This document shows, in pieces, positions 15,263 to 38,366 of a stretch of DNA of 55,105 nucleotides. The translations under genes were made by a program, and so were the position numbers. Under the pieces are notes generated by a model. It was not told where the DNA came from and ran no database searches. It saw only the letters and a list, made by a program, of their open reading frames with translations. The DNA comes from a virus: UHGV virus genome UHGV-0308106. One strand, written 5' to 3'. Numbering within the stretch: the first letter of the stretch is position 1; each line of letters opens with the position of its first letter.

Positions 15263-16045
15263 ATGAACCTTGAAAACACAGTGAAATACCACTTCGCTAA
15301 ATCCACACTGATTAGCGATTCTCCGCGCGCTACCGCCTCCGATTCACTGACCGGTACCGACATAATGGCTGCCATGGGCATGACGCAGGAACGCGCCGCA
15401 ATGGGTTACAGCGCCTTCCTCGGCAAGATGGGCATAAGCAATAACGACCGGGATCGGGCGATCGGTCTGCTGGCTGAGTACGCGATGACAAAATGCGACA
15501 AGGTTGCCGCACTGCGTAAGCTCGGTGCCGCGGTTAAACCTCAGGTGATGCACCAGTTGGCCACCTTCGCTTTTGAGGACTATTCCCGCAGCGCTGCCAG
15601 CGTGAAGCAGTGCGATTGTTGTGACGGTCAGGGCTTCATTGAGGCTGACGTGTTTACCAATAAATTCCGTAAGCCAGAAGGGAAAATGACCGTGTCCGGG
15701 ATGGTGAAGGTCAAAGAATCCATCAAAGTGCTATGCAAAAAGTGTAATGGCTCTGGTGTGGTTAGTGCTTCTTGCAGTGATTGCCATGGGCGCGGCAAGG
15801 CAGTGAACCAGGCTCTTACTGAGAAACAGGGCGTTCCTGTTCTGGCTGACTGTAAGCGCTGCGGAGGGCGTGGGTATGAACGACTTCCGTCGACTGAAGC
15901 CTATGCTGCTGTATGCCAGATTACTGACGCCATTAGCCTGGACACCTGGAAAAAGTCTGTTAAGCCATTCTACGACCTGCTGATCACGAAATTTGATATC
16001 GAAGAGTCCTGGGCCGAAAAACAGCTTAAGCAGATAACGCGGTAA
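15263..16045 (+). CDS. late-gene antitermination protein Q-like
   Basis: 260-aa ORF after rusA and before lysis genes; multiple CxxC pairs (CDCCDGQG, CKKCNGSG, CSDCHGRG, CKRCGGRG). Confidence 0.6.
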   Translation: MNLENTVKYHFAKSTLISDSPRATASDSLTGTDIMAAMGMTQERAAMGYSAFLGKMGISNNDRDRAIGLLAEYAMTKCDKVAALRKLGAAVKPQVMHQLATFAFEDYSRSAASVKQCDCCDGQGFIEADVFTNKFRKPEGKMTVSGMVKVKESIKVLCKKCNGSGVVSASCSDCHGRGKAVNQALTEKQGVPVLADCKRCGGRGYERLPSTEAYAAVCQITDAISLDTWKKSVKPFYDLLITKFDIEESWAEKQLKQITR

Positions 16046-19004: not shown

Positions 19005-19224
19005 AGTTATCCCACCAGACAGCGAGGTGCTGAACGGGATTTTTGCAGAGATTGAGCGCAAATATGCGCGTCAGCCGCTGACGCCAAAAGTAATTGATGA
19101 AATGCAACGCGAAGCGACGCGCCTTGTACGGCGAATGATAACCACAAAGGTTACGTTCGTCCGGGACTGACATTACAGAAGCCCTTCACTGAGGGGCTTC
19201 GATAATGGAGCACTGGGATTATTC

Positions 19225-19845
19225 ATGAACAGACCACACCCACCAGCGCATTTTACGATGCCACCTGACCCGAAGCCTTACATCAGCATAATGCCCGCCA
19301 TTGACGTTGGCGAGTGGCTGAATCAGCACATCCTGAGCGATGAGGGTGACCTCTACAACCCTGACCACCAGCATTTGCTTGAAGCGGATCTGTGCTTTCT
19401 CTGGGCGTCGAACACTTTCGAGAAGAAAGGGCGGTCCGTGCTGGGGCAGGCGGAAGAAGTGGCAATGCGGGCTGGAGGCTGGCAGAAAGCGCGGATGGAG
19501 CAGCAGATGTATGAATGGTTCGGCAGGGTGCCGCAGTTCATCATCACGCTGGCCGCCGATTACTGCTCGCAATGTTCCGATCTGGAATTCTGCGCGCTGA
19601 TAGAGCACGAGCTTTATCACATCTGCCAAGCGACAGATGAATTTGGTGTGCCGAAGTTCACGCAGGAAGGGCAGCCAAAGCTGAAGCTGCGCGGCCATGA
19701 CGTGGAAGAGTTTGTGGGCGTGGTTCGCCGTTACGGTGCGAGCCGTGATGTGCAGGAAATGATTGATGCGGCGAATCAGCCAGCGGAGGTTGCTCATCTC
19801 GATATTGCCAGAGCTTGCGGGACGTGCATGCTGCGACTGGCTTAA
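19225..19845 (+). CDS. HExxH motif protein (putative metallopeptidase)
   Basis: 206-aa ORF; CSQCSDLEFCALIEHELYHIC contains HELYH plus flanking Cys. Confidence 0.45.
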   Translation: MNRPHPPAHFTMPPDPKPYISIMPAIDVGEWLNQHILSDEGDLYNPDHQHLLEADLCFLWASNTFEKKGRSVLGQAEEVAMRAGGWQKARMEQQMYEWFGRVPQFIITLAADYCSQCSDLEFCALIEHELYHICQATDEFGVPKFTQEGQPKLKLRGHDVEEFVGVVRRYGASRDVQEMIDAANQPAEVAHLDIARACGTCMLRLA

Positions 19846-19875
19846 AACTGGACTGAATAAGACGAATGGTGATTT

Positions 19876-20349
19876 ATGGCTGCATTAAAACCTGATGTGA
19901 AAGCCTTCATCATTCAGTCGCTTGCGTGCTATGACACGCCGACGCAGGTGGTTGAGGCTGTCCAAAAAGAATTCGGGATCAAGATCACCCGCCAGCAGGC
20001 TGAATCTCACGACCCCACGAAGGCCAGCGGTAAGACGCTCGCCAAAAAGTGGATCGAGATGTTCCACGCTACGCGCGAACGGTTCCTGACCGAAACCAGC
20101 GACATTCCGATCGCGAACAAATCCTATCGCCTCCGCGTGCTTGACCGCATGGCAACCAAAACCGAGGGGATGAAAAACTTCTCCCTGACGGCGCAGCTGA
20201 TTGAACAGGCCGCGAAAGAGGTTGGCGACGCTTACACCAATAAGCTGAAGGTTGAAAGCACTGGCAAGGATGGCGGCCCGATCAAGACCGAGACGACCAA
20301 CCTCACCGCAGATCAGGCCGCAGAGATTTACCGCAAGATGATGGGGTGA
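19876..20349 (+). CDS. putative terminase small subunit
   Basis: 157-aa ORF upstream of large terminase; paralog at 37662-38135. Confidence 0.5.
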   Translation: MAALKPDVKAFIIQSLACYDTPTQVVEAVQKEFGIKITRQQAESHDPTKASGKTLAKKWIEMFHATRERFLTETSDIPIANKSYRLRVLDRMATKTEGMKNFSLTAQLIEQAAKEVGDAYTNKLKVESTGKDGGPIKTETTNLTADQAAEIYRKMMG

Positions 20350-20374
20350 TAGCCGCATGTTGCGGCTATGGATT

Positions 20375-20587
20375 CTAGGCTTGTTTTGGTCGAGTAATAC
20401 GGCCAAGAGCTTTAATTGCAGCGACTTTGACGTTGTGATTTAGATCCGAAGATAAATCAAGTAAGCGATTTACATGAGCTGGCGTTGCTGAAGCACTCTC
20501 GCCGAGAGCATAAATTGCAGACAATTTTACTTCGTTGTTAAGGTCGTTGGTTAATTCCAACAACTTAGCGCTAACTGCTGGTGTCAT
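20375..20587 (-). CDS. HEAT-repeat-like small protein (antisense moron)
   Basis: Two repeats DLNNEVKLSAIYALGE and DLNHNVKVAAIKALGR; GGAGG SD before ATG at 20587; AT-rich; track ORF extends to 20635 via TTG. Confidence 0.45.
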   Translation of the reverse strand: MTPAVSAKLLELTNDLNNEVKLSAIYALGESASATPAHVNRLLDLSSDLNHNVKVAAIKALGRITRPKQA

Positions 20588-20658
20588 AAAACCTCCTGTA
20601 ATTGGTACATAAACAATATCAACTTTGTTACGCAAAAACTCAATGCCTGGAATTGTTT

Positions 20659-22281
20659 ATGCCTCTGCCGTTTGAATTCGATTTCAGAAACCCTGATTAC
20701 CAGATGGTTTTTGAATGGCGGATGGAGCGCTTACAGCGCATTCGCCAGAACCCTGAAATGCTGCCAGCACTAAAGCAGTTTTACCGCACCAACCCGGCAC
20801 AGTTCATCATCGACTGGGGTATGACTACTGACCCGCGTAACATCGATTATGGCCTGCCGGTCACAATCCCTTTTCTGCTGTTCCCGAAACAGGAAGAGTG
20901 GATTCACTGGATCATTGAGCGGCGCGAACGACTGGAGAACGGCATCACCGAAAAGAGCCGCGAAATGGGGCTCAGTTGGACCGCGATCGGGCTGGCCTGC
21001 TCGCTTTGTCTCTTCAACAAAGAAATGGTTATCGGTTTCGGCTCCCGTAAAGAGGAATACGTCGACAGCACCGGTGACCCGAAGGCGCTGTTCTGGAAGG
21101 CGCGAAAGTTCGTGGAAACACTGCCCATCGAGTTTCGTGGTTCGTGGGACGAGAAGAAGCATGCGCCGTATATGCGCGTTGAGTTTCCAGATACTGGCGC
21201 GGTTATCAAAGGCGAGGCTGGCGACAATATCGGACGTGGTGACCGTACCACGCTCTACCTGGTGGATGAAGCTGCATTCCTCCAGCGTCCTCTGTTGATT
21301 GATGCGGCGCTGTCGCAAACCACCCGTTGCCGTATTGACCTGAGCTCGGTTAATGGCATGGCGAACCCGTTCGCGCAGAAGCGCCACGGCGGAAAAATAC
21401 CAGTATTCACGTTCCACTGGCGAGATGACCCGCGCAAGGATGAAGAGTGGTATCGCAGGGAGTGCGAGAAAATCGACAATCCGGTGGTGGTGGCGCAGGA
21501 ACTTGACCTGAACTACAGCGCATCTGCGGAAGGCGTCCTGATCCCGTCCGACTGGGTACAGGCTGCCGTCGACGCGCATATCAAACTTGGTATTCAGCCA
21601 ACGGGCAAGCGACTGGGCGCGATGGACGTCGCCGACGAAGGCCGGGACAAAAATGCCTTTTCGACCCGTCACGGCTTCCTTCTGGAGAACGTGCGTGAAT
21701 GGTCCGGCGTTGGCAGCGACATTTACCAGTCTGTTGAGAAGGTCTTCGGCTTTTGCGAACAGGACAACCTCGAAGAGTTTCGCTTCGACGAGGACGGCCT
21801 GGGTGCTGGCGTTCGCGGCGATGCGCGCGCCATCAACGAACTGCGTTACGCAGCGCGCCGACCGTCAATACTCGCCACACCGTTTCGTGGTAGCGGCGCG
21901 GTATTTGATCCGGACGATGAAGCGGTGCGCGGGGACAACGGACAGGCCGCACGCCTGAACAAGGACTTCTTCGCCAACGCCAAGGCCCAGAGCTGGTGGT
22001 GGCTACGCAAGCTTTTCCAGAACACCTATCGCGCCGTGGTTGAGGGCATGGCCTACAACCCGGACGAAATCATCTCAATCAGCAGCGCCATGGCGAGCAA
22101 AGACAAACTCATCATTGAGCTGTCGCAGCCGACCTACTCCATTAATGGCGTGGGGAAAATCGTTGTTGATAAACAGCCTGATGGCACCAAGTCGCCGAAC
22201 CTCGCCGACTCGGTGATGATCAGCTACGCGCCAATGAATTCAGCCCTGAACATCTGGGAGCTGCTAGGGAGACAGGCCTGA
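20659..22281 (+). CDS. terminase large subunit
   Basis: About 540-aa from ATG 20659; ATPase and nuclease-type motifs ([18 protein letters not shown]); followed by portal. Confidence 0.85.
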
Positions 22282-25619: not shown

Positions 25620-25833
25620 TCCAATGACTGCATATCTGTACCTTATGCAACTAATATCTATTAATCAGTGCGTTATCGTTCGGAATCATACTGCGTTACT
25701 GGCCTGAACCATAAAAATGACACTCCGAACATGTGCGGATTTATTCGCCGGATTTCGCTTTGATTCGGTACGTGAGGGACTAGAGCGAGAATCATGCGCC
25801 GTTTGCATTACATGGTAGCCAGAGAGGTGTTGA

Positions 25834-27063
25834 ATGATTGTTAGGCCACTAACTAACGTCGAAGTGAAAAGCGCGAAGGCACAGGGCAAGGATTTCAGTT
25901 TGCACGATGGTTTCGGTTTGTTGCTTTACATCACAAGCCGGGGCGGTAAGTCATGGCGTTTTCGGTATGTACACCCGGTAACGAAGAAGAGACAAACCTA
26001 TACCATTGGAAGATACCCGGAGTTTACTTTGTCCGAAGCGAGGGAGGAACGTTCGAAACTGCGCCGTATGGTAGCGCGGGGGATAGATCCGAACGAAGTC
26101 AAAAAAGATACCAGGAATGAACAGCGTAAAATGTACGCGCAGTCATTTCAGGCCGTTGCCGATGAATGGCTAAAAATCAAGATTAAAGAAGGTGCGAGAA
26201 GCAACACGCTTGAATCGCACAATGTGACGTTGAAGCATCTTTCCACGATTTTTAGGCATACCACAGTACATAAAATAAACGCAGCCGATACTATTCAGGC
26301 TTTTAAACCTTTCAGGGAAAGGCCATCAACGCTTACGAAAATGGTTATTACCATCAACGCCATAATGGATTATGCGGTAAATATTGGGGTTATTGAGCAC
26401 AACCCACTATCGAAAATTGGTAAAGCATTCCCGGCTGAAAAAAACGAACCAAGAGCGACTTTACAGAAAGAGCGGTTGCCAGAATTTTTAAGCGCATGGA
26501 ACGAGTTGAGCTTATGGGAGCCATCAAAGCTGGCATTATTATTTCAGATCATTACGATGGTCCGACCTTCGGAAGCTGGCGGCGCTCTCTGGAATGAGAT
26601 TGATTTTGATAATTCAATCTGGCAAATCCCTGCAAGCCGGATGAAAGGAAAGCGCCCCCACGTAGTCCCATTATCGAGCCAGGCTATAAACGTGCTTAAA
26701 GAGGCCGAAAAGTGGAAGCGCTGCGATTATGTTTTCCCCTCATGGCGAAAAGAAAATAAGCCGATCTCACGATGTGCGACTCAGGCCGGAATACACAAAA
26801 CGTCGTTTAAAGGAATGATTGTTCCTCATGGGTTCAGGGCGTTGGCATCTACAGTTTTAAATGACGAGGGGTTCAACCCTGATGTGATTGAGGCTGCACT
26901 CGCTCACAAAAGCGCCGATGCGATTCGAAATGTTTATAACCGTAGCGACTATCTGGAAAAACGCCGGGTTTTAATGCAATGGTGGGGGGACTTTATCGAG
27001 GCCGCAGAGCGTGGAGAGATACTGGAGACCAGCGGCGATAAGGGCTTAAGGCTGGTTGTGTAG
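25834..27063 (+). CDS. int: tyrosine integrase (P4-type) of nested element
   Basis: 409-aa ORF; N-terminal arm-binding-like GKSWRFRYV; catalytic domain (HGFRALAST, AALAHKSADAIRNVYNR). Confidence 0.85.
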   Translation: MIVRPLTNVEVKSAKAQGKDFSLHDGFGLLLYITSRGGKSWRFRYVHPVTKKRQTYTIGRYPEFTLSEAREERSKLRRMVARGIDPNEVKKDTRNEQRKMYAQSFQAVADEWLKIKIKEGARSNTLESHNVTLKHLSTIFRHTTVHKINAADTIQAFKPFRERPSTLTKMVITINAIMDYAVNIGVIEHNPLSKIGKAFPAEKNEPRATLQKERLPEFLSAWNELSLWEPSKLALLFQIITMVRPSEAGGALWNEIDFDNSIWQIPASRMKGKRPHVVPLSSQAINVLKEAEKWKRCDYVFPSWRKENKPISRCATQAGIHKTSFKGMIVPHGFRALASTVLNDEGFNPDVIEAALAHKSADAIRNVYNRSDYLEKRRVLMQWWGDFIEAAERGEILETSGDKGLRLVV

Positions 27064-27104
27064 GGCATATCCATTTTTGGATAATTATGATTTCAAACGG
27101 GAAT

Positions 27105-27129
27105 AGCTGGCTTTAAGCCAGCTTTTTTT
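27105..27129 (+). terminator. intrinsic terminator after integrase
   Basis: agctggc-tttaa-gccagct hairpin followed by tttttt. Confidence 0.55.
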
Positions 27130-27206
27130 ATGCCCAAAGCTAACCGGAATGCGTTTTTTTTTATTCAAATCATATATAATCATATCGAATATATACGGAG
27201 GTTTTT

Positions 27207-27419
27207 ATGTCTATAAGTGGCGGTGATATTCTGCTAAAAGGTGAAGTGAAAGCGCGTTTACGTTATCGCTCAGACTCGTCATTCTACGAGTTTCTAAAAG
27301 ACGAGAAAAACGGCTTTCCAATGCCTTTTAAAGTCGGTGGGCGTAACTGCTGGTATGAAGATGAAGTAGATGCCTGGATAAGTAAACAAAGCGAGAAGCG
27401 CGGGATCTGCACATCATGA
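27207..27419 (+). CDS. AlpA-family transcriptional regulator
   Basis: 70-aa ORF; GGAGG SD; short HTH protein (FPMPFKVGGRNCWYEDEVDAWI) adjacent to integrase. Confidence 0.65.
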   Translation: MSISGGDILLKGEVKARLRYRSDSSFYEFLKDEKNGFPMPFKVGGRNCWYEDEVDAWISKQSEKRGICTS

Positions 27420-27558
27420 ATGTTTGCAGATTTGGGAAAGAGGGCTTGCTAACGGCTATCCGGGCAAGCCCTTTTTATTGTCAGTGGTGGGGATCTGTAA
27501 CTTACGGCCACCAGCGCCGGTAATCACCTTCTGGCTGGTGGCTTCACTGGCATGGCTA

Positions 27559-27918
27559 TTACGCTGCCGCATCATCTGAATTGAATTCAATGTGAATTCG
27601 GTCATAAGGCAGCACGATTTTTTCGCCGTCTTTGTCCAGAACGCCGCCGTTAAGCAGTGACTGAACATCGTTATAAACACCGCGAAAATCACGGTTAACA
27701 ATGCGTGATAGTTCGCGGATTGATACGGCTTGCGCTCCCTCCATCGCTTTGATGATCTGCCAGCGGTTAGGGGCAAGCATAGTTTTAGCCAGTTGTTCTA
27801 CAGTGGGAAAAATCAGTTCGGAACCGATGAAATCCCCGTTCATTGCGCGGGAGGCGTCGGACATTGCCACCCGGAAAGCATCATCAACGGTCATTACTCT
27901 GACGGTCAGCACTCGCAT
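27559..27918 (-). CDS. winged-HTH protein (antitoxin/regulator-like)
   Basis: 119-aa ORF, GGAGG SD, 4-bp gap after upstream 93-aa gene; HTH-like AVSIRELSRIVNRDFRGVYNDV. Confidence 0.5.
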   Translation of the reverse strand: MRVLTVRVMTVDDAFRVAMSDASRAMNGDFIGSELIFPTVEQLAKTMLAPNRWQIIKAMEGAQAVSIRELSRIVNRDFRGVYNDVQSLLNGGVLDKDGEKIVLPYDRIHIEFNSDDAAA

Positions 27919-27922
27919 GGTA

Positions 27923-28204
27923 TTACCTCCTCAACAGGTTTATGTCAGCCTGAAAGCTGGCGATCAGGTTCTCAATGGTGGTGAATGTCACCGGATATTC
28001 CCGATCATGGATGTGTTTGTGGTCGCCTTTGCCACGTTCGTTGTCGTAACGCATGACGCACTCGCCATCTACGATGTAGGCCAGACTGTACTTGTATTGG
28101 TGCTGGCTACCTAAAATTGCCGGGTCTACTTCCAGAATGCGGATCGAGGCGAAAGCGTTATCAGCTATCTGGATACGGCGGTTCATCAACTCAACAGCGG
28201 GCAT
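27923..28204 (-). CDS. small protein (toxin-like partner, family not recognised)
   Basis: 93-aa ORF, AAGGAG SD, operator palindromes immediately upstream. Confidence 0.45.
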   Translation of the reverse strand: MPAVELMNRRIQIADNAFASIRILEVDPAILGSQHQYKYSLAYIVDGECVMRYDNERGKGDHKHIHDREYPVTFTTIENLIASFQADINLLRR

Positions 28205-28220
28205 TGGCTTATCTCCTTGT

Positions 28221-28270
28221 TGATGTAAATAATAACATCACAAACGAATGATGTAAATGATTACATCATT
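28221..28270. promoter_or_regulatory. inverted-repeat operators upstream of two-gene cassette
   Basis: tgatgt-aaataata-acatca (28221-28240) and aatgatgtaa-atga-ttacatcatt (28247-28270). Confidence 0.45.
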
Positions 28271-28412
28271 GCGGGTAAGTTACCGATGGCATGAACGGTT
28301 CGCTGCTGGTGGCTCTCGATCTCCTGAAAGCTCAGGATATTGCCGGGCATGATTTTAATCGGCGGACTTTTCGGCCGATTGAATACGGGCAGTTCGCTCC
28401 CTGTGTATCGGC

Positions 28413-28552
28413 TTCGTTTCTGGATGATTCGCGTTTCGTTTCTGGTGAATTCGCATTCGCAATTTGTCCGCGAAGCCTTATCAGGCCTGATTTGAGCGGT
28501 GCTCTCTCTTTGCGAATTCGCAGTTCCATTTCGCACTTTGATTCGCAGTTTT
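28413..28552. repeat. cluster of palindromic GAATTCGC/GATTCGC motifs
   Basis: Tandem 20-mers ttcgtttctggatgattcgc (28413-28432) and ttcgtttctggtgaattcgc (28435-28454); further gcgaattcgca and gattcgca copies to 28552; overlapping ORFs look non-coding. Confidence 0.4.
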
Positions 28553-28713
28553 CAAATGTTCCCATTCCGGGGACACGGACGATTAGACAGGTGTTACAAA
28601 CGTTGGTGGTGAAATATCTTCTTGCGCTGGCGGGCACGGTGTGGTTATGATTATTTCGCACCTCACAAAACGGGTGCCGGGCGTGAGAACCCGGATAAGG
28701 TCAAAGGCGACAA

Positions 28714-28737
28714 CAGACGCCTATCGCGTCTTTTTTT
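28714..28737 (+). terminator. intrinsic terminator in leader upstream of icd-like gene
   Basis: agacgc-ctatc-gcgtct stem followed by tttttttt. Confidence 0.4.
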
Positions 28738-28931
28738 TGTCGCAATGTCAGTACCCCCATATGTAGCGGCGCAGATCCGCGCACAGAATCAATGGTGGCT
28801 CTGGCAGGGCAGCTTTCGGGCTGGCCGGTTCCCTTTGACGCCGGTATTCTCACCCCTGTCAGTGTCACCACCCTTTAGAGCGTGAGAACTCAGGTGGTGG
28901 CTCCTTAAATTAGTCAAAGGAGATCATCATC

Positions 28932-29129
28932 ATGATGACTATCCCTACCCTCGCTCAAACAAAATTCACCTGGCGCTTTCTCGCGCTGAATCGCCACGAT
29001 AAAAAAGCCAAACCTTGCCGTCTGTCCGTTGAGGCTGCGACCGAACGCGAAGCCCGCCGCATCCTTGCGCCGCACTTTATTTTGTCTCTGGCCGCACGTC
29101 TGCCAGTGCCGGAGGTGCGTCATGTTTAA
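28932..29129 (+). CDS. Icd-like small protein (P4 family)
   Basis: 65-aa; KFTWRFLALNRHD...RLSVEAATEREARRILAPHFILSLAARLP resembles Icd/Ash proteins as recalled. Confidence 0.45.
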   Translation: MMTIPTLAQTKFTWRFLALNRHDKKAKPCRLSVEAATEREARRILAPHFILSLAARLPVPEVRHV

Positions 29130-30000
29130 CCTCCAGACACTGACAGCTAAAGCCCGTGAGCTGCGCGGCAACGTCGTTAAAGCGGCGAGCACAAAGGGAA
29201 GTCGCACCATGACTCCTGTCTATGACCGTGACGAGCAGCGCAAGCTACGCGAGCGCATCCAGCAGACACAGCCCGATTGGGTGTTGCTCTGGTGGGATAT
29301 TGCGACCGTAACCGGCTGGCGTACCAGCGACGTTTGCAACCTGCGCTATTCCTGCGTCAATTGGGAAACGGGGCAGGCGACAATTATCGTTGCCAAGCAG
29401 ACCAAAGCCGCCGAAGCGCGGGCAACCCGCAAAGGTATTGAAATTGTGCGCCAGCAGCGCAAGGACGCCGCGCGGCTCGCCGCTGACCATATCGCCTACA
29501 TGAAGTGGGATAGTATCGGTTGTGACGAACTGGCCGCCGATATGAACGACGAGGAACAGGCGATTGTGTTCGGGCTGGTGGCAAAGGCTGACGTCAAGCA
29601 CGACACCAAACAGTTACCGCCCGGCATTATCAAGCGGCTGCGTGACCGTCAGGATCGGAATCTGGTGGAGGACGACCTGGTATTTTCACGCTCTCAAATC
29701 GAAAGTAACCGTTGTCAACGTCTGGAAGGTAGCGTTACTCGCCAAACCATCTGGCGCAAACTTCATGGCGTCATGGCGTGGTTTACCCGTTTCATTAACG
29801 CTAAATTGCGCCTGAGCGCGTACTCAAGCCGAAAAATAGCAGCCTTTAATCTTATGTCCGCAGGTGGCGAACAGGGATTATTGGTGGCTTCTGAAATGCT
29901 GGGGCATAGCAACCCGGCGATAACTCGCACTTACCTTCAATTAGGCAGCAAAGCCGCCGCTATCCAGTCCCGTTTAGCAATGGAGGTGTGCCATGCGTAA
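29122..30000 (+). CDS. tyrosine recombinase-like protein (catalytic domain only)
   Basis: 292-aa from ATG 29122 (GGAGG SD); WDIATVTGWRTSDVCNL and C-terminal LGHSNPAITRTYLQ; no N-terminal core-binding domain. Confidence 0.55.
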   Translation: MFNLQTLTAKARELRGNVVKAASTKGSRTMTPVYDRDEQRKLRERIQQTQPDWVLLWWDIATVTGWRTSDVCNLRYSCVNWETGQATIIVAKQTKAAEARATRKGIEIVRQQRKDAARLAADHIAYMKWDSIGCDELAADMNDEEQAIVFGLVAKADVKHDTKQLPPGIIKRLRDRQDRNLVEDDLVFSRSQIESNRCQRLEGSVTRQTIWRKLHGVMAWFTRFINAKLRLSAYSSRKIAAFNLMSAGGEQGLLVASEMLGHSNPAITRTYLQLGSKAAAIQSRLAMEVCHA

Positions 30001-30172
30001 TCTCTTTCATATCACTGGCTACGCCGTCAATAAACGCGGCCTGACAGTCGGTTTTAGCTATCTCATCGACGCCGAGGACGCCATGCAGGCAAAAGTTAAT
30101 GCCATTGCTGAGGCGAAAGACGATGAACTCACCCACGTATCTATTGCCCGTATTCTGGAGGTGGCAGCATGA
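29993..30172 (+). CDS. hypothetical small protein
   Basis: 59-aa ORF not in track; GGAGG SD; coupled to neighbours. Confidence 0.35.
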   Translation: MRNLFHITGYAVNKRGLTVGFSYLIDAEDAMQAKVNAIAEAKDDELTHVSIARILEVAA

Positions 30173-30381
30173 GCAAAGTATCCCTGGCCGATTCAACCTG
30201 CCGTATCCAACAGGCGCAGGAAGTCCTGTCTCTCTGGCTTGAGGCGACGAATAAAAACGATAGCGGCACGGCTAAATTAATCGGCGCAATCATTTCCCTT
30301 CTGGATGGTATCCCCGAATTGATGGATTCAGTAGAGGATGAATTGGCTGGCATGGACTTAAAAGCGATGGATAAAGCATGA
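30169..30381 (+). CDS. hypothetical protein
   Basis: 70-aa ORF, ATGA coupling on both sides. Confidence 0.4.
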   Translation: MSKVSLADSTCRIQQAQEVLSLWLEATNKNDSGTAKLIGAIISLLDGIPELMDSVEDELAGMDLKAMDKA

Positions 30382-31004
30382 GCAACGTAGAGAAATTCAC
30401 ACCGGGAAATGCCGACTTATTACACGCCGAAGCCACACCGCACGGCGTAAACATCATGACCCGCAATGATGCCGGGATGTATGAGCATGTAGCCATTATC
30501 ACCTATGAGAGCGCTGTAAGCCGTCTGGATGCGGGAGAGTACGACGATACGCCAGATATCGGCTACGCCATTCATTTTGCCGTTGCTGATGGCGGGGCGC
30601 GTGGCTGGTTCGACTTTACCGCGCAGCATGAAGTAACCATGTGGCGCTGGCTGATTGCTGCGACGTTCGTTTCTGAGATGAAGCGCGAAAACGGCACAAC
30701 CTCCGTCACGGAGGCTGACGGCACAACATCGCAGGTGGCGATTTACTCCAATGGTAATGCGGGCATGGTGATTTACCCGTTTGCTGAACGGCTGGCGATG
30801 GCGAACAACATCGAGGGCGCAATGATTGAGCGATACGGCGTCGAACAGGGTACGGAAAAAGCCATTGTGTTTTATCAGGCCATGCTGGATACGGAGCGCG
30901 GCGAGCTTACCCCGTTCGGACGTGAAACGCTGGCAGAGCTACACGATCACTTCATTGCTGATCTGGATGAAAACGGCTGGCCTGAAATGCCAGCGGCGCA
31001 CTGA
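30378..31004 (+). CDS. hypothetical protein
   Basis: 208-aa ORF upstream of primase in same operon. Confidence 0.45.
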   Translation: MSNVEKFTPGNADLLHAEATPHGVNIMTRNDAGMYEHVAIITYESAVSRLDAGEYDDTPDIGYAIHFAVADGGARGWFDFTAQHEVTMWRWLIAATFVSEMKRENGTTSVTEADGTTSQVAIYSNGNAGMVIYPFAERLAMANNIEGAMIERYGVEQGTEKAIVFYQAMLDTERGELTPFGRETLAELHDHFIADLDENGWPEMPAAH

Positions 31005-31016
31005 GGGAGCGACACA

Positions 31017-33797
31017 ATGCGTAATATCGACCTTATCCGCGAAGTGACCAGCGCCGCAGCAGGGCGCTGGCCTTATGTGCTGGCTGGGTTGTCTATCGAC
31101 GTGCCTGATTCATCGCGCCGCCATTCTCCATGCCCTGCATGTGGTGGAAAAGACCGTTTCAGATTCGACGACAACGGGCGCGGTAGCTTTATCTGCAACC
31201 AGTGTGGCGCTGGTGACGGGCTGGATTTAATCAAGCGGGTTAACAACTGCGACACTACGGAGGCGGCACAGCTTGCCGCTGACGTGCTGGGTATTGATTA
31301 CCGGGCAGCGCAATCCGACCCGGTGGCAGCGAGCCATATAAGGGAGCAACTGGAAGCTGACCGCCAGCAGCGTGAGCAGGAGCGCCAGAAACAGGCAGCA
31401 GGGGACGCAGAGCAGCGAAGGGCTACGTTTGCCCGTCTGTATGCCGGAATGCGCCAGAGTGCCACACAGGGCGAATCTGATTACCTGCAATCAAAAGGGC
31501 TGACCGGGTTTAACTATCCGGTTATGCCTGATGGTTCGTTATTGCTGGAGCTGGTGGACGAATCCGGCGCAGTGGCAGCAGCGCAAACCATTACACCGCA
31601 GGGAGAGAAGCGACTCCTGACAGGTTCAGCAAAGCGCGGGGCATATCACGCCGTAAACGCGCCAGAATCGCCGCAGAGCGTTTTAATTGCCGAGGGGCTG
31701 GCGACGGCCCTTTCAGTTCACCTGATGCGCCCGGACGCGCTGGCAGTGGCAGCAATTGACGCGGGCAACCTGCTACCCGTTGCCGAAGTGATGCGCCGGA
31801 AGTACCCACAGGCACAAATCATCATTGCCGCAGATAACGACCAGATGGGCGAAAGTGACGGAATTAAAGGAGTGAAAGTTAACACTGGCAAGGAGGCCGC
31901 AGAGAAAGCCGCGAAAGCCGTTTCTGGCTGGGTTTCCATGCCACCAGTGGACTATAAAGCGGACTGGAACGACTACCACCAGCAATACGGCCTCGAAGCG
32001 GCCACAGCAGCATTTAACGACTCAATGTATCAACCGGAGGGTAAGAAAGTGGGTGCGACACTGACAGCTATCGACGGCGGCAAGAAAAAACTTGGTATCG
32101 ACGACGATCTGAAACCGCGAGTAGAGAGCCGTGCGGATGGCATTCACTGGATCACCCCGAAAGTGGACAAAGACACAGGAGAAATTATCAATACCGAGGC
32201 GTGGCTATGCTCTCCGCTGGAGATTGCTGGTGCGGGGAGTGATAACGCCAGACAGCGCTTTCTGATCCTGCGTTGGGACGTCCCCGGCAACCGGGGGCAA
32301 GTTACCCGTGCGCTTCCATGGGAGGACATTGGCGACCGTGAGGGATGGCGCACGCTGAAAAACGGCGGTGTCAGTGTGACAACCAAACCATCGTTGCGGG
32401 CAATTCTGGCCGACTGGCTGCAGCGAACTGGTAGCGGCAAGGAATGGCAGATCAGCCACACCACAGGCTGGCACAACGGGGCGTACATCATGCCGGATGG
32501 TGATGTTATTGGTGAGCCAGAGATACCGCTGTTATTCAGTGGTCGGAGTGCGGCGGCTGGTGGCTATACCGTCAGTGGAACGCCGGAAAGCTGGCGTGAT
32601 TCGGTGGCGCGTCTTGCGCTGGGAAACCCGTCAATGATGCTGGGCGTTGCTGCTGCGCTTTCTGCGCCGCTGATCGGGCTTGTTGGCGCTGACGGGTTCG
32701 GCGTGCATCTTTTCGAGCAGTCCAGCGCAGGGAAGACAACCACCGCCAACATTGCCAGCAGTTTATACGGTGAACCGGATGCCTTGCGCCTTACCTGGTA
32801 CGGTACAGCGCTGGGTATCGCCAACGAAGCGGAAGCGCATAACGACAGCCTGTTACCGCTGGATGAAGTGGGGCAGGGCAGTAGCGCCAAAGACGTTGCT
32901 ACGTCTGCTTACACGCTGTTTAACGGTGCCGGAAAGCTACAGGGGGCCAAGGAGGGCGGCAACCGTGAGTTAAAGCGCTGGCGCACCGTGGCGATCAGTA
33001 CCGGGGAAATGGACATTGAGACGTTTCTTTCTGCTGGTGGGCTGAAAGTTAAGGCCGGGCAACTGGTGCGATTGCTTAATTTACCGATGGAGAAATCAGT
33101 AACGCACCATGAGTACCAGAACGGGAAGCAACACGCCGACGCACTCAAAGAGGCTTACCAGACGAACCACGGAGCCGCAGGCCGTGAATGGATTAAATGG
33201 CTTGCAGGCCACCAGCAGGAGGCAAAACAAGCTGTCAGGGCGGCGCAAGAGCGCTGGCGCAGTCTTATCCCCGCTGATTATGGCGAACAGGTTCATCGTG
33301 TCGGTGAGCGGTTCGCCATTCTGGAGGCGGCGCTGGTGCTGGGGATGCCTGTCACTGGTTGGGGGGAGCAGGAAAGTCGGGACGCTATCCAGCATGGCTT
33401 TAATGCTTGGGTAAAAGAGTTTGGCACGGGGAACCGTGAGCATAAGCAGATCATCGAGCAGGCAGAGGCGTTTCTTAATGCCTACGGCATGAGCCGTTTC
33501 GCGCCGTTCCCGTATAGCCCGGCTGACATGCCGATCCGGGATTTAGCCGGATACCGTCAGAAAGGTGAGCATGACGAAAGCCCCGTAGTGTTCTACACCT
33601 TTCCGGCTGCGTTCGAAAAGGAGATAGCGCAGGGCTTTAATGCGAAACAGTTTGCCCGTGTGCTGGCCGGGGCTGGGGTACTGAAACCGCCAGCCAGCGG
33701 AAGGGGATATCAGCGTAAATCCCCGCGAATTGATGGACGCCAGATAAACGTTTATGTGCTCCAGCTACGACCCGACGAGATAGAGGGCGAAGAATAA
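31017..33797 (+). CDS. primase-helicase (P4 alpha-like)
   Basis: 926-aa; zinc ribbon CPACGG...CNQCG; TOPRIM-like AEGLATALSVH and IIAADNDQ; P-loop-like SSAGKTT. Confidence 0.9.
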   Translation: MRNIDLIREVTSAAAGRWPYVLAGLSIDVPDSSRRHSPCPACGGKDRFRFDDNGRGSFICNQCGAGDGLDLIKRVNNCDTTEAAQLAADVLGIDYRAAQSDPVAASHIREQLEADRQQREQERQKQAAGDAEQRRATFARLYAGMRQSATQGESDYLQSKGLTGFNYPVMPDGSLLLELVDESGAVAAAQTITPQGEKRLLTGSAKRGAYHAVNAPESPQSVLIAEGLATALSVHLMRPDALAVAAIDAGNLLPVAEVMRRKYPQAQIIIAADNDQMGESDGIKGVKVNTGKEAAEKAAKAVSGWVSMPPVDYKADWNDYHQQYGLEAATAAFNDSMYQPEGKKVGATLTAIDGGKKKLGIDDDLKPRVESRADGIHWITPKVDKDTGEIINTEAWLCSPLEIAGAGSDNARQRFLILRWDVPGNRGQVTRALPWEDIGDREGWRTLKNGGVSVTTKPSLRAILADWLQRTGSGKEWQISHTTGWHNGAYIMPDGDVIGEPEIPLLFSGRSAAAGGYTVSGTPESWRDSVARLALGNPSMMLGVAAALSAPLIGLVGADGFGVHLFEQSSAGKTTTANIASSLYGEPDALRLTWYGTALGIANEAEAHNDSLLPLDEVGQGSSAKDVATSAYTLFNGAGKLQGAKEGGNRELKRWRTVAISTGEMDIETFLSAGGLKVKAGQLVRLLNLPMEKSVTHHEYQNGKQHADALKEAYQTNHGAAGREWIKWLAGHQQEAKQAVRAAQERWRSLIPADYGEQVHRVGERFAILEAALVLGMPVTGWGEQESRDAIQHGFNAWVKEFGTGNREHKQIIEQAEAFLNAYGMSRFAPFPYSPADMPIRDLAGYRQKGEHDESPVVFYTFPAAFEKEIAQGFNAKQFARVLAGAGVLKPPASGRGYQRKSPRIDGRQINVYVLQLRPDEIEGEE

Positions 33798-33811
33798 AAC
33801 ACACATACGAG

Positions 33812-34104
33812 ATGTTTTTTTGTTGGTTCAGTTGGTTCAGTAACTATTTAATTAAGATAAGTATATGTATTTAATATATTTCTATACCCATAAGTGAACC
33901 AACACTGAACCAACAAATACCCATTTTGAACCAACAAATGCCGCTATTGAACCAACGCCCTTTTCTGGCTGGCCTGTAAATCTTTCCCACTGAACCAACA
34001 CGAAAATAGCGTTTGTTGGTTCAAAACAAGGCTTTGTTGGTTCACTCCTCAAGAAATAATCCTTACAAAACAACAATCTTTACAAATTGAACCAACTGAA
34101 CCAA
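33812..34104. repeat. iteron array / candidate origin of replication
   Basis: 12 copies of GAACCAAC in both orientations (e.g. 33812, 33821, 33886, 33897, 33918, 33939, 33982, 34005, 34026, 34079, 34088, 34097) flanking an AT-rich tract 33830-33880. Confidence 0.65.
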
Positions 34105-34397
34105 CTGAACCAACATGTTTTTGTTTATCTATAGAGTTTTTTCGGAGAGTAATTACGAATTTGGAGGGGCATCGCCTAAGCGACAGTATGCGGAAACGGC
34201 AACTTTGCGGAGCGGAAAAGAAAAAGCCCGCGCTGGAGAGGCGAGGGCTTTTGTTAACCATGTTTATGCAATCACACAATGGTGGATCACCGTCATAGTA
34301 CCACGTCGATTTATCATTTCAATGTACGCAATGATGTTTACTAATATTGCAATTTATGCAATGATCAGAATTTAAACAACGCAAAAGGTTATGAACA

Positions 34398-34961
34398 ATG
34401 AAACAGATAACCAATGTTAATCTGGAAAGTGATAACGCTGGTGGTACAGTCGAGGTGACTTACTCCGATGATACGTTCGAAAGGCTGACCTGTTCGCTGC
34501 CTGTGGCTCTCGTCATTGCGAACCTTGCAACGACGCTTAAGCAGGAACGTGCAACACGCATTGCAACCGGCGACCGCCTGCGCCGGATGTATACCCGCGA
34601 TAGTGACATGATTACCCGCAGCGGCAGCGGCGCTTCTACGACCTCCACCGCGCCAACGTCAATGGACGCTGAATTTATGCGCCTGGTACGCGCTGTAGCA
34701 CCAAAGTATGACAACGCCCTTCCTGATACCGATCCTCGCCTTGTTGCGCTTGATGTGCTGCGTTACGCACCCGCTGAGGCATTCAGTGCGGTACACCCGA
34801 CCCCGCTATCAGAGATTCAGCTTGATCAGGCTATCGACGTTCTGGAACAGGTTGGCGACTACATGCGAGTTAACAACGTTTCACCGAAGATTCTCACCAC
34901 AGGCGACGCCATTCGCAGCATTAACACCGACAACGCCAGTTTCTGGCATCGCACGAAGTAA
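34398..34961 (+). CDS. hypothetical protein with scaffold-like C-terminal motif
   Basis: 187-aa; C-terminus TTGDAIRSINTDNASFWHRTK resembles helper 24387-25619 C-terminus. Confidence 0.5.
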   Translation: MKQITNVNLESDNAGGTVEVTYSDDTFERLTCSLPVALVIANLATTLKQERATRIATGDRLRRMYTRDSDMITRSGSGASTTSTAPTSMDAEFMRLVRAVAPKYDNALPDTDPRLVALDVLRYAPAEAFSAVHPTPLSEIQLDQAIDVLEQVGDYMRVNNVSPKILTTGDAIRSINTDNASFWHRTK

Positions 34962-34967
34962 GGAGCA

Positions 34968-35162
34968 ATGAGCATGGCTATTTATGACCCGAAATTAGCA
35001 GCAGGAAACCCGCAAAGCGCCGGGCGTAAACTCTTTGGCCGTGAACAGGCCGAGCAATTGCGGATGCGTAACAACTTCAACAACGAATGCCGCAATCTGG
35101 AAAAAGTCAACGAAGCGAATGCAAAGTTCTGGAGTGAACAGGATGAAAAAGCCAAACGTTAA
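34968..35162 (+). CDS. hypothetical small protein
   Basis: 64-aa; contains NAKFW near C-terminus. Confidence 0.4.
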   Translation: MSMAIYDPKLAAGNPQSAGRKLFGREQAEQLRMRNNFNNECRNLEKVNEANAKFWSEQDEKAKR

Positions 35163-35310
35163 GCCGGTATTACTCTCTGGCGACCAGTTCGCCGCAATCT
35201 GCAAGATCCAGGAGCGCGAACGCCAGCGCTCCGATATTGGCGTAGCGCCGTCTGTCCATCAAATTGCCCGTGGGCTGGTGGCGAAAGCGCTGGCATCAAT
35301 TCAGGAATAA
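35143..35310 (+). CDS. hypothetical small protein
   Basis: 55-aa from ATG 35143 with GGAG SD. Confidence 0.3.
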   Translation: MKKPNVKPVLLSGDQFAAICKIQERERQRSDIGVAPSVHQIARGLVAKALASIQE

Positions 35311-35315
35311 CGACT

Positions 35316-36383
35316 ATGTCATATAACTGGATGCGCCATTTCGAGCTACAGCTCATCGATGAGAATGGCAAAGGAATTAGCCTTAGTGATTTCAAAGTTA
35401 CCTTTGATATAGAGCGTAACGATAACAAATGGCCAGCTGTTGCGACGGTCAAGATCTACAACCTTTCACCAACTACTCAGAACCGTATTATGCAACGTGA
35501 GTTTGCCAAAATTGTGTTGATAGCGGGGTATGATGGTCGTGCGCAGGATGTAAGGGCAAGTGATGTGGGGATTGCACGTGAAATATCAGCAAGCGAAGTG
35601 GGCCAGGCTAACGGCGCAAACTACGGAGTCATTTTCAGCGGTGATATCCGCTTCACTGTGACCGGAAAAGATAACCCTGTCGATTCATGGGTACAGGTGC
35701 AGGCTTGTGACTCTGTGGAGGCGTTTACCAGCGCATTTATCAACACCACTATCAGCAAAGGCTACACCACAGAAGATATTTATGTTGAGCTTATGAAAAG
35801 GCTGGAACCTTACGGCATTTCTCGCGGTATTGTTCCTGAATTCCCGGCAACGGTATTTCCTCGCGGTCGAGCCCTCTTTGGCTATGTCCATAACTATCTC
35901 GATGAAGTGGCCGCGCAGTGCAAAGCCACTTGGCAATTCAACTATGGAAAAGTCGATATTGTTCCCAGAGACAAGGCCACTCATGAAGCTGTGGTTCTCA
36001 ACGCTAATACCGGGCTTATCGGTATGCCTCAGCAGACCATCGGTGCGGGTGTGAATGTCAAATGCCTGATTAACTCACGGATTCACCTGAACGGGCTTAT
36101 CCAACTGGATCAGGCTTCGGTATATCGTAGCGCCTTATCTGCGGATCAAATTGCCCAAGCTGGTGGGCCAATTTCGGTGGAAAGCCAAAACGGAAACCTT
36201 GTCACTACTGGATTAACGCAGAGTCCGGCGAGCATTGCTACCGATGGTATCTATAAGGTTCGGTATATCAGTTACACGGGCGACACGCGCGGTCAAGCGT
36301 GGTATATGGATCTGGCGTGTGAGGCTCGCGGGAATTCTGATTTATTTTCAAGTTCATTTATGAATAAGCAGAGTGAAGAATGA
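35316..36383 (+). CDS. baseplate hub-like protein (paralog of 47472-48536)
   Basis: 355-aa; about 70 percent identical by eye to helper hub-like protein (MSYNWMRHFELQLID vs MSLNWMRHFELQLLD). Confidence 0.5.
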   Translation: MSYNWMRHFELQLIDENGKGISLSDFKVTFDIERNDNKWPAVATVKIYNLSPTTQNRIMQREFAKIVLIAGYDGRAQDVRASDVGIAREISASEVGQANGANYGVIFSGDIRFTVTGKDNPVDSWVQVQACDSVEAFTSAFINTTISKGYTTEDIYVELMKRLEPYGISRGIVPEFPATVFPRGRALFGYVHNYLDEVAAQCKATWQFNYGKVDIVPRDKATHEAVVLNANTGLIGMPQQTIGAGVNVKCLINSRIHLNGLIQLDQASVYRSALSADQIAQAGGPISVESQNGNLVTTGLTQSPASIATDGIYKVRYISYTGDTRGQAWYMDLACEARGNSDLFSSSFMNKQSEE

Positions 36384-36724
36384 AGAAGATTATTTTACTG
36401 ATTGGTTTATTGGGCGCATCTGGAAGTCATGCTGCGCAGGTTATTACCATGCAGTGCGGAAACTTTCGCTTTGAGATGATAGAAAACTCGATGGCGAGAA
36501 TTAATGGTGAGTATGTAACATCTCAGAAAATTACAGAGTTCGGACAGAACGGGGCAAAAGTAGAAATGACGCTTATGCCTGCCAGCGATGGGAATCTGTA
36601 TGGGTTTGAATACATCCATCCTGACGGTAGCAAAAAGCGCTGGCTGAATGTTGAGCTTATCCGCACCAATATGAATCAGGCGCGGATCATTGGCTCGTTT
36701 GATTGTAAGCGCGTGAAGGGGTAA
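36380..36724 (+). CDS. secreted small protein (paralog of 48549-48893)
   Basis: 114-aa; signal peptide MKKIILLIGLLGASGSHA; two Cys; shared C-terminal DCRKVK. Confidence 0.5.
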   Translation: MKKIILLIGLLGASGSHAAQVITMQCGNFRFEMIENSMARINGEYVTSQKITEFGQNGAKVEMTLMPASDGNLYGFEYIHPDGSKKRWLNVELIRTNMNQARIIGSFDCKRVKG

Positions 36725-36732
36725 GGGGAATC

Positions 36733-37395
36733 ATGCCATTCATTCGACCCGCAAATGAGCAGGATGTAACACAGCTTGTTCAGGACAATGCTAAAGCATC
36801 TGTAACCAATGCGTTACCTGGCATTATTCGTTCGTTCGATCCCGAAACTGTCACCTGCGATGTTGATATAGCCATTACGGCAAGAATGACGAAGGCTGGC
36901 ACAATGGGTGAAGATTTCCAGTATGAGTCCGTCCGCTATCCGATTCTTAACGATTTGCCTGTGGTTTTTCCGCGCGGGGGCGGAGTTACGCTTACTTTCC
37001 CGGTTAAAGATGGTGATGAATGCCTCATCGTATTCTCTTCGCGTTCGATTGATTTCTGGTGGCAGAACGGCGGTGTGCAGGAGCGAGCTGATGGGCGTAT
37101 TTTAGATCTGTCTGATGCGTTCGTTATTCCTGGCCCCCAATCACAGGTAAAGAAGATATCCAATATCAGTACCAACGCTGCGCAGCTGCGTACAGATGAT
37201 GGAGCGGCATTTGTAGAGGTGTCCGCTGGTGGAGCCATTACTATTACCAGCTCTCAAATCACCCTTAACGGGCCCGTGCAGGTAAACGGAACGATCACTT
37301 CCACTGGCGACCAAACGGCCAACGGTATCAGCCAGATTAACCATACCCACGGCGGCGTACAATCAGGCGGCAGCAACACAGGAAAACCACAATGA
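36733..37395 (+). CDS. baseplate spike protein gpV-like (paralog of 49430-50170)
   Basis: 220-aa; PGIIRSFDPETVTC, FPRGGG, C-terminal HTHGGVQSGG; about 65 percent identical to helper gpV. Confidence 0.7.
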   Translation: MPFIRPANEQDVTQLVQDNAKASVTNALPGIIRSFDPETVTCDVDIAITARMTKAGTMGEDFQYESVRYPILNDLPVVFPRGGGVTLTFPVKDGDECLIVFSSRSIDFWWQNGGVQERADGRILDLSDAFVIPGPQSQVKKISNISTNAAQLRTDDGAAFVEVSAGGAITITSSQITLNGPVQVNGTITSTGDQTANGISQINHTHGGVQSGGSNTGKPQ

Positions 37396-37571
37396 GCAAT
37401 ATTGAAAAACTGAAACCAGAAGAAAGCGGATCCAGCCAGAATGGTAAGGTTCGTACCTGGCTGGATGATATCAACGGGCAGCCGGAACCAGATGGTATTG
37501 GCAGCTTCGGTGAGAGTGCGATCTGCGAAGAATCACGCACAGCGGAAACCATGCGAAATAACGTAGGGTGA
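37392..37571 (+). CDS. hypothetical small protein
   Basis: 59-aa ORF, ATGA overlap with gpV-like stop. Confidence 0.3.
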   Translation: MSNIEKLKPEESGSSQNGKVRTWLDDINGQPEPDGIGSFGESAICEESRTAETMRNNVG

Positions 37572-37599
37572 CGGTCAGATGACGTGATCTGTAACTTTA

Positions 37600-37647
37600 A
37601 GTAGCGGTGCAGGGGCAGAACTCAGCACGCTACTTTTATTTTCTTTG
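37600..37647 (+). terminator. intrinsic terminator upstream of orphan small-terminase paralog
   Basis: agtagcggtgc...gcacgctact stem with one bulge, followed by tttattttctttg. Confidence 0.5.
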
Positions 37648-37661
37648 TCAAAAGGTGAACA

Positions 37662-38135
37662 ATGGCGGCATTACCAACAATGGCTAAGGTTATGATTATT
37701 CAATCATTAGCTTGCTACGAACCCCCTTCCAGAATCGTTGAGCTTGTAAAACAAGATTTTGGCATCGTCGTTACCCGGCAGCAGATATCGGCCTACAACC
37801 CTGAAAATACAATGGCAAAAAATCTTAGCCAAAAATGGGTAGAACTCTTTAATCACACTCGCGCCCGCTTCCAGAGTGAAATATCCGAGATCCCTATCGC
37901 TAACAAAGCGTACCGGCTGCGTATGCTCGATCGCATGGCTAACCGTGCAGAGGCAATCAAGAATTACGCATTAACAGCGCAGCTTATTGAACAGGCCGCG
38001 AAAGAGTGCGGGGACGCTTACACCAACAAATTAAAGGTTGAAACAACGGGTAAAGATGGTGGTCCGATCAGAACGGAAACAACGAACTTAACCGCCGAAG
38101 AAGCCGGGGAGGCATACCGCAAATTTATGGGATAA
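37662..38135 (+). CDS. small terminase paralog (orphan)
   Basis: 157-aa; same length as 19876-20349 product, C-terminal half nearly identical; no large terminase or portal follows. Confidence 0.5.
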   Translation: MAALPTMAKVMIIQSLACYEPPSRIVELVKQDFGIVVTRQQISAYNPENTMAKNLSQKWVELFNHTRARFQSEISEIPIANKAYRLRMLDRMANRAEAIKNYALTAQLIEQAAKECGDAYTNKLKVETTGKDGGPIRTETTNLTAEEAGEAYRKFMG

Positions 38136-38366
38136 CCACCAGCGCCGTGACACGTCACACGCAAAAATAGCACCGCCCATTAATGGGCTGGTGGCACAGC
38201 TTGCATATTGAAATTCCCTGTAAATCTTACAGATCTGGTATTGAGTAACTTACCCCATTCAGCGCCATACATCACAGAGCAGCCTATGGACTACACACAA
38301 AATCAGGCTGCAAATAAATCCTTATATTTCAGTTGATTAAATAATAGCCTTGCATTCCTGTACCGG

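Follow-up and report, generated by a model that had tools for sequence, protein, structure and literature searches.

Gene arrangement at the lysis-packaging junction

The viral genome UHGV-0308106 was analysed as a stretch of 55,105 nucleotides, referred to below as the window, and includes a plus-strand ORF at positions 19225-19845 that runs from an ATG codon to a TAA stop codon (19843-19845). The encoded protein has 206 amino acids, a mass of 23.4 kDa and a pI of 5.1. A first-pass annotation had reported this ORF together with its HELYH sequence, and both are confirmed here: the motif spans residues 128-132 (19606-19620, plus strand) at the end of a helix formed by residues 119-131. Cysteines are located in a C114-x-x-C117 pair, at C123 and C134, and in a second C198-x-x-C201 pair. 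The choice of start codon is supported by the sequence R-P-x-P-P (residues 3-7), which is conserved among homologs. An overlapping minus-strand ORF of 192 amino acids (19219-19797) is without support and was set aside as a mechanical by-product.

The ORF does reside between lysis and packaging genes, as originally described. Upstream are two holin genes, a gene for a GH19 endolysin, an Rz gene with an embedded Rz1-like ORF, and an ORF of 61 amino acids, and downstream are genes for a DUF2280 protein, the large terminase subunit (TerL) and the portal. Given the presence of an antiterminator Q gene (15263-16045) and the uninterrupted run of plus-strand genes, we assign the ORF to the late transcription unit.

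The adjacent DUF2280 gene (19876-20349, plus strand) encodes a protein of 157 amino acids with a pI of 9.1 that matches PF10045 (E=9e-50) and that we infer to be the small terminase subunit (TerS). It corresponds to PHROG 546, which is labelled 'unknown', and a search for a relative in the PDB found none. The gene is constantly located directly before TerL, and its stop codon abuts the TerL start codon in close relatives. Moreover, the last 39 amino acids are a 64% match to the C-terminus of the Terminase_2 TerS of Escherichia coli phage 606R2 (L086, 2548-3120). On the basis of this shared C-terminus, the position before TerL and the basic pI, the DUF2280 protein appears to be a modular small terminase composed of an N-terminal DNA-binding domain and a C-terminal TerL-binding tail. 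The match to 606R2 indicates probable domain swapping among TerS proteins, wherein varied DNA-binding heads would be carried on one TerL-binding tail.

The TerL gene occupies positions 20659-22281 (plus strand). Its start is placed at the ATG at 20659 ('MPLPFEFDF...') rather than at the TTG at 20602 given in the ORF list, because relatives join the DUF2280 stop codon to this ATG and the gene call at locus L100 gives a protein of 540 amino acids.

The ORF belongs to the PF18894 family

The family of the protein was initially judged to be unplaceable, but an HMM search provides a clear assignment. The ORF matches Pfam PF18894 (PhageMetallopep, 'putative phage metallopeptidase') with an E-value of 5.9e-43 and a score of 146.6 bits against a cut-off of 23.7, such that residues 30-184 align with positions 2-134 of the 134-position profile. 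PHROG 513 matches the ORF from end to end (E=4.5e-96), while NCBIfam has no model that matches it. The window holds this single PF18894 ORF. The family is large: clustering at 90% identity gives 3246 clusters, and clustering at 50% identity gives 885 (E≤1e-3). In a phage collection it is present in 144 records, chiefly of phages of Acinetobacter, Pseudomonas, Klebsiella, Vibrio and Burkholderia, and the copy in Citrobacter phage Omnitron is 98% identical to the ORF examined here.

Conservation was assessed with 133 cluster representatives of at least 180 amino acids. Among these, the residues of the HExxH motif are nearly without exception (H128 and E129 at 100%, H132 at 99%), and the motif is invariant in two further alignments that give the same conservation picture. 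We therefore consider HExxH to be a true signature of the family that is under strong selection, and the earlier proposal of a candidate metalloprotein with this motif stands, as the absence of conservation that it named as a refutation is not observed. Two additional blocks are similarly well conserved, which are H158-D159-V-E161-E162 (H158 at 99%, D159 at 92% and E161 at 95%) and N45-P-D-H48-x-H50-L51 (H48 at 98%, H50 at 95% and L51 at 97%). The C-terminal CGxC sequence is also retained (C198 at 97%, G199 at 95% and C201 at least 86%), as is, to a lesser degree, C123 (76%).

The remaining cysteines are rarely shared, with C114 and C117 present as cysteine in about 20% of the same representatives and C134 in about 2%. 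Thus, the earlier observation that cysteine pairs flank HELYH holds for this protein but not for the family, and the term 'Cys-rich' does not describe a family trait, given that conservation is confined to C123 and the C-terminal CGxC. The cysteine feature found family-wide is CGxC, with the flanking pairs confined to this lineage. The ORF is an ordinary PF18894 member, set apart by its lineage-specific extra cysteines (C114, C117 and C134) alone.

A 'transposase' label is attached to PHROG 513 and also to the records of phages ZF40, phiPSA1, YMC11 and PHB04, and so a role as a transposase or other DNA-transposition protein must be considered. Some of the longer homologs offer an explanation for this label, because 33-37 of 150 listed PF18894 representatives carry an N-terminal extension of 45-117 amino acids (P0250, P0258, P0267, P0305 and P0346 are among them). 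Many extensions are HTH-like, with the pattern 'Y-[ST]-x-E-x-K-x-x-A-L ... G-D-x-x-K-A-A-K-x-x-x-V-P', and a match to HTH_Tnp_1 is observed below threshold (E=4.6e-4). This resemblance is the probable source of the PHROG label. However, it is the sole link to transposition, and the extension is absent from the ORF examined here, where PF18894 is the only match and no catalytic domain of the DDE, HUH or Ser/Tyr recombinase type is present. The zincin fold described below and the lack of terminal repeats or a mobile-element context also argue against this reading, which we regard as effectively refuted, and a propagated annotation can thereby be corrected. The possibility that the HTH extension is a copy of the DUF2280 domain was likewise rejected (hhalign probability 0.2).

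Literature searches turned up no work on the function of PF18894 or DUF2280, and published mentions list the PF18894 gene or its neighbour as having an unknown role. The word 'metallopeptidase' in the family name should thus be read as a prediction, as biochemical data were found for no member.

A predicted zincin with two candidate metal sites

Structure prediction, which had been proposed in the first-pass annotation as a check, yields a confident zincin model. An AlphaFold prediction made with an alignment of 28 sequences (pLDDT 50) was discarded and replaced by one made with 97 sequences, for which the pLDDT is 94.7 and the pTM is 0.88, with lower pLDDT values in the C-terminal tail. In this model the fold is that of a minimal zincin catalytic core. 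A Foldseek search of the PDB produced no match at E≤1e-3, sequence and profile searches of the PDB found no match to the ORF, and the matches in BFVD are other PF18894 proteins only. Thus, the protein is best described as a zincin without a close characterized relative. Family-specific parts, among them the N-terminal helix with H48-x-H50 and the C-terminal CGxC, make up about half of its length.

Based on the chemistry of known zincins, the presumed catalytic site is HELYH, wherein H128 and H132 would serve as zinc ligands and E129 as the catalytic glutamate. A third metal ligand might be provided by His158 or Glu161 of the H158-D159-V-E161-E162 block (19696-19710, plus strand), which is located just before a helix formed by residues 164-170. 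The conserved histidine pair of N45-P-D-H48-x-H50-L51 (19357-19377, plus strand; helix 46-51) is a candidate for one half of a second metal site. The other half could be formed by C198-G-T-C201 (19816-19827, plus strand), although this sequence might instead represent a tail that resembles a cysteine switch. The protein is small, acidic and cytoplasmic. On the whole, we are very confident that the ORF encodes a zincin of the PF18894 family whose active-site signature is intact.

Co-inheritance with the DUF2280 gene

The PF18894 gene is conspicuous for the constancy of its downstream neighbour. At 89 of the 95 loci with sufficient downstream sequence, it is followed on the same strand by a DUF2280 gene, and in nearly all such loci the distance from its last sense codon to that gene is 34-38 nt. 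Spacers, when reduced to unique sequences, measure 30-33 nt, and that of the window is 30 nt (19846-19875). In contrast to this fixed pair, TerL, portal and lysis genes and the upstream regulators are exchanged freely among loci. Of the first 83 loci, only some 10 have the TerL type of the window, and other loci carry a Terminase_6N TerL, an HK97-type portal and an S78 protease.

Close relatives with 72-100% identity account for 80 of these loci, and so nine divergent representatives with only 35-49% identity were also sampled. The DUF2280 gene is directly downstream in five of these and 600 nt downstream, past two small ORFs, in another. In two others, Terminase_6N is accompanied by a small TerS-like protein of another type, which in one case is an HTH protein. 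In the last, the PF18894 gene lies elsewhere, on a 139-kb contig next to genes for SSB and DUF5131. Counts by host taxon for PF18894/DUF2280 in the phage collection coincide, at 62/62 for Acinetobacter, 44/44 for Pseudomonas, 8/8 for Vibrio, 7/7 for Burkholderia and 8/9 for Klebsiella. E. coli phage 606R2 (vB_EcoM-606R2), which carries the same TerL as the window (88% nucleotide identity) with its Terminase_2 TerS, also lacks the metallopeptidase. An 'HNH/endonuclease' neighbour in Acinetobacter phage SA1 was dismissed, as this annotation has no Pfam support.

The pair is nonetheless separable. In Bordetella phage PHB04, a PF18894 gene occurs with no DUF2280 gene adjoining it, and the window has a second DUF2280 gene, described below, that is not accompanied by a metallopeptidase gene. 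Among Salinibacter phages, 181 records have DUF2280 directly before TerL. In phage 4_20 (L084, 3432-4480), the one Salinibacter record in which the arrangement upstream of DUF2280 was inspected, a multi-pass membrane protein of 172 amino acids replaces the metallopeptidase, and the three-site motif described below is absent.

The composition and boundaries of the ORF match those of the genes that follow it. Its GC content (0.56-0.58) is like that of the packaging and head genes and differs from that of the lysis cassette (0.49-0.54). A mosaic breakpoint relative to Omnitron-type phages is located at 19171, just 5′ of the ORF, whereas none is present between the ORF and DUF2280. This breakpoint directly follows the stop codon of the 61-amino-acid ORF (phrog_12811) and is adjoined by a GC-rich hairpin of 7 bp (about 19178-19200), which lacks a T-run and was not called a terminator. 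A search for promoter or terminator signals by which the ORF might qualify as an independent moron found none above chance.

Synteny, composition and mosaic boundaries all contradict the original view that the location is one that usually holds accessory genes: the gene travels with the DUF2280 TerS and not with the lysis cassette. For these reasons, and given the lack of its own promoter or terminator, we consider the ORF to be a core component of the DUF2280-type packaging module and not a moron. The packaging module of temperate phages of Proteobacteria begins with this gene, which is co-inherited with the DUF2280 TerS.

These same features bear on two alternative roles for a protease encoded at this site. 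The first is an anti-defence or host-takeover function, wherein the enzyme would cleave a nucleoid protein of the host or an immune sensor or effector that is triggered by late or packaging proteins, and would occupy the head of the late operon for reasons of timing only. Counter-defence genes, however, usually have a patchy distribution even among close relatives, whereas PF18894 is near-universal wherever a proteobacterial DUF2280 TerS occurs. The ORF also has the composition and mosaic boundaries of the packaging module and none of the hallmarks of a moron (its own promoter or terminator, deviant GC content), unlike the HEAT-repeat insertion located 500 nt away, and PADLOC gives one match only, which is at chance level (E=0.013). 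We consider an anti-defence role to be unlikely, albeit one that deserves to be kept in mind.

The second alternative, a prohead protease for capsid maturation, is brought to mind by the presence of a protease-like gene near head-assembly genes. Related loci, however, have a dedicated enzyme of this kind after the portal, such as the Peptidase_S78 protein of locus L087, and the ORF precedes TerS instead of occupying a place between the portal and capsid genes. Furthermore, its position remains constant while the families of head genes change, and it exhibits no similarity to known prohead protease families. This highly improbable reading was rejected.

A three-site motif at the ORF-DUF2280 junction

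The spacer between the two genes carries two direct copies, 10 nt apart, of a 5-8-mer whose sequence is specific to each lineage, and an inverted copy is located 84-100 nt inside the DUF2280 gene. When each spacer is matched to itself, the best offset is 10 for 18 of the 24 unique spacers. The window has copy 1 as TGGAC (19849-19853, plus strand), a degenerate copy 2 as AAGAC (19859-19863, plus strand) and the inverted copy as GTCCA (19960-19964, plus strand) within V-Q codons of the DUF2280 gene; in the window, therefore, the element has degenerated in part.

The three copies co-vary across lineages (loci L012-L083), as exemplified by the combinations TCAGGAC/GTCCTGA, CCTGGAC/GTCCAGG and TTTTGAC/GTCAAAA. 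Pairing is observed at 81.8% compared with 65.4% in controls (shuffle, slide), a value that is reached by none of 500 shuffles, and the number of double-change cells is 22 compared with 8.1 expected. For copy 2, pairing is 72% compared with 60.6%. Of six divergent loci outside the discovery set, three carry the motif as an exact 5-mer under a strict definition (combined P about 3e-6), and one more carries it approximately. The independent loci with the motif are L089, L094, L096 and L097.

Co-variation of this type could reflect RNA base pairing around the TerS start codon. However, RNAalifold found no consensus structure in the junction region (-0.64 kcal/mol), and the motif may therefore act as DNA to which a protein binds, and not as an RNA stem. 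We consider it at least as likely that these sequences are phased protein-binding sites, and thus a candidate pac or TerS-binding array, as that they represent RNA pairings.

Inserted elements in the window

Two insertions are present in the window. A low-GC segment (0.42-0.46) of 308 nt (20351-20658) is located exactly between the TerS and TerL genes and is absent in five close relatives. It contains an antisense ORF of 70-86 amino acids with HEAT repeats (20375-20635, minus strand), for which only seven clusters exist in a collection of 5.8 billion proteins. Homologs are found in antisense orientation at lysis/terminase junctions of other enterobacterial prophages, and the insertion appears to be a small moron.

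A far larger integrative element of 12.7 kb (about 25649-38350) separates the DUF2213 head gene from the cement and major-capsid genes, with the prophage resuming at 38351. Its junctions carry imperfect 20-nt repeats (25629-25648 and 38351-38370; 16 of 20 positions identical), and Omnitron is without the element. Encoded within it are an integrase (25834-27063), an integrase-like fragment (29029-30000), a DUF927 primase-helicase (31017-33797) and tail-tip-like proteins resembling a baseplate hub and a gpV spike. The element looks like a phage satellite inside its likely helper.

This element also carries a second DUF2280 gene (37662-38135, plus strand), whose 157-amino-acid product is 64% identical to the prophage TerS. 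The C-terminal, presumably TerL-binding part is the most conserved, whereas the putative N-terminal DNA-binding part has diverged. A terminator-like hairpin is present upstream of this gene, no metallopeptidase gene precedes it, and its 5′ region has a motif set that differs from that of the helper (CTTTTAT.. / GTAAAAC). This arrangement is consistent with a satellite TerS that may redirect the helper terminase without having a metallopeptidase gene of its own.

A possible role in DNA packaging

The reading that we prefer is that the ORF encodes a protease whose function is linked to packaging. This assignment is derived from the conserved motif and gene associations described above, and we regard it as plausible but tentative, and as falling somewhat short of probable. 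According to this proposal, the protein would be an active zinc hydrolase, most probably a protease, in which H128 and H132 together with H158 or E161 bind the catalytic zinc and E129 acts as the general base. H48 and H50 might join C198 and C201 to form a second, structural metal site, or might participate with them in a latency switch. The protease would be made along with TerS when late expression begins. Its target would be bound at or near the site where packaging starts and might be TerS or a different DNA-bound protein; trimming or removal of this target would allow terminase to assemble or turn over. Zincins of the SprT/Wss1 and ImmA/IrrE types, which act on DNA-bound partners, offer a possible parallel.

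A more elaborate version of this proposal would unite the zincin, the DUF2280 TerS and the three-site motif as an undescribed cassette for packaging initiation, in which the protease processes or recycles TerS or clears pac. The satellite would exploit this cassette by using the enzyme of the helper, and would itself carry no more than a TerS paralogue and the motif set that belongs to it. We view this combined version as speculative and rather improbable.

Considered alone, the ORF is one more copy in a family of thousands, and the useful part of the analysis is the picture that emerges for the family. PF18894 has an invariant motif, is core-like, and is tied to one type of TerS in prophages of Enterobacteriaceae, Pseudomonas, Acinetobacter, Vibrio and Burkholderia. 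No terminase system is known to need a protease. If the packaging-linked protease role is true, then packaging would include a proteolytic step that has gone unrecognized.

Comparison with known systems

The ORF most closely resembles other members of PF18894 and PHROG 513, with which it has both its motifs and its phage or prophage context in common. SprT-like proteins are the only other zincin family touched more than twice in profile comparisons, although these are sub-threshold hits for five of 97 relatives (best E=0.012), and the ORF itself matches neither the SprT-like (PF10263) nor the WLM profile. Several features set the ORF apart from SprT-like, Spartan and Wss1 proteins. The conserved histidine that follows the motif does so at a distance of 26 residues instead of almost directly, the pI is acidic (5.1), and about half of the protein, made up of the N-terminal 50 and C-terminal 45 residues with HxH and CGxC, has no counterpart.

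Minigluzincins (projannalysin, proabylysin and selecase) are also small zincins, but these archaeal proteins of about 100 residues lack a phage context. Their identity to the ORF is 10-14%, and they lack its additional N- and C-terminal elements. Latency of the type known from minigluzincins is, for the ORF, a conjecture.

YbeY provides a precedent for a zincin-like scaffold that serves a hydrolase other than a peptidase, and a metal-dependent nuclease or similar enzyme of this type could conceivably help to cut or process nucleic acid at packaging initiation, much as certain terminases are aided by HNH proteins. However, YbeY has an H-x3-H-x5-H motif without a catalytic glutamate, which the ORF does not fit, and the invariant glutamate of PF18894 disfavours such a role. 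We judge this alternative to be very unlikely.

With regard to gene arrangement, the ImmA/ImmR, IrrE/DdrO and CapP/CapH pairs likewise have a gene for a small HExxH protease beside one for an HTH DNA-binding partner, and in these pairs the HTH protein is the substrate of the protease. The neighbour of the ORF at 89 of 95 loci is a basic DUF2280 protein with a putative HTH-like DNA-binding domain. The ORF is without a Peptidase_M78 domain (ImmA/IrrE, COG2856) and, as noted above, without a SprT-like match, and the parallels with SprT/Wss1 proteins and with protease-HTH pairs are analogies of function only.

Finally, the terminase-adjacent HNH proteins of HK97-like phages are also products of a small metal-binding accessory gene that is inherited with the terminase. 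These proteins have a beta-beta-alpha-metal fold, whereas the ORF is a predicted zincin with a different motif, and some phages carry HNH and PF18894 genes side by side.
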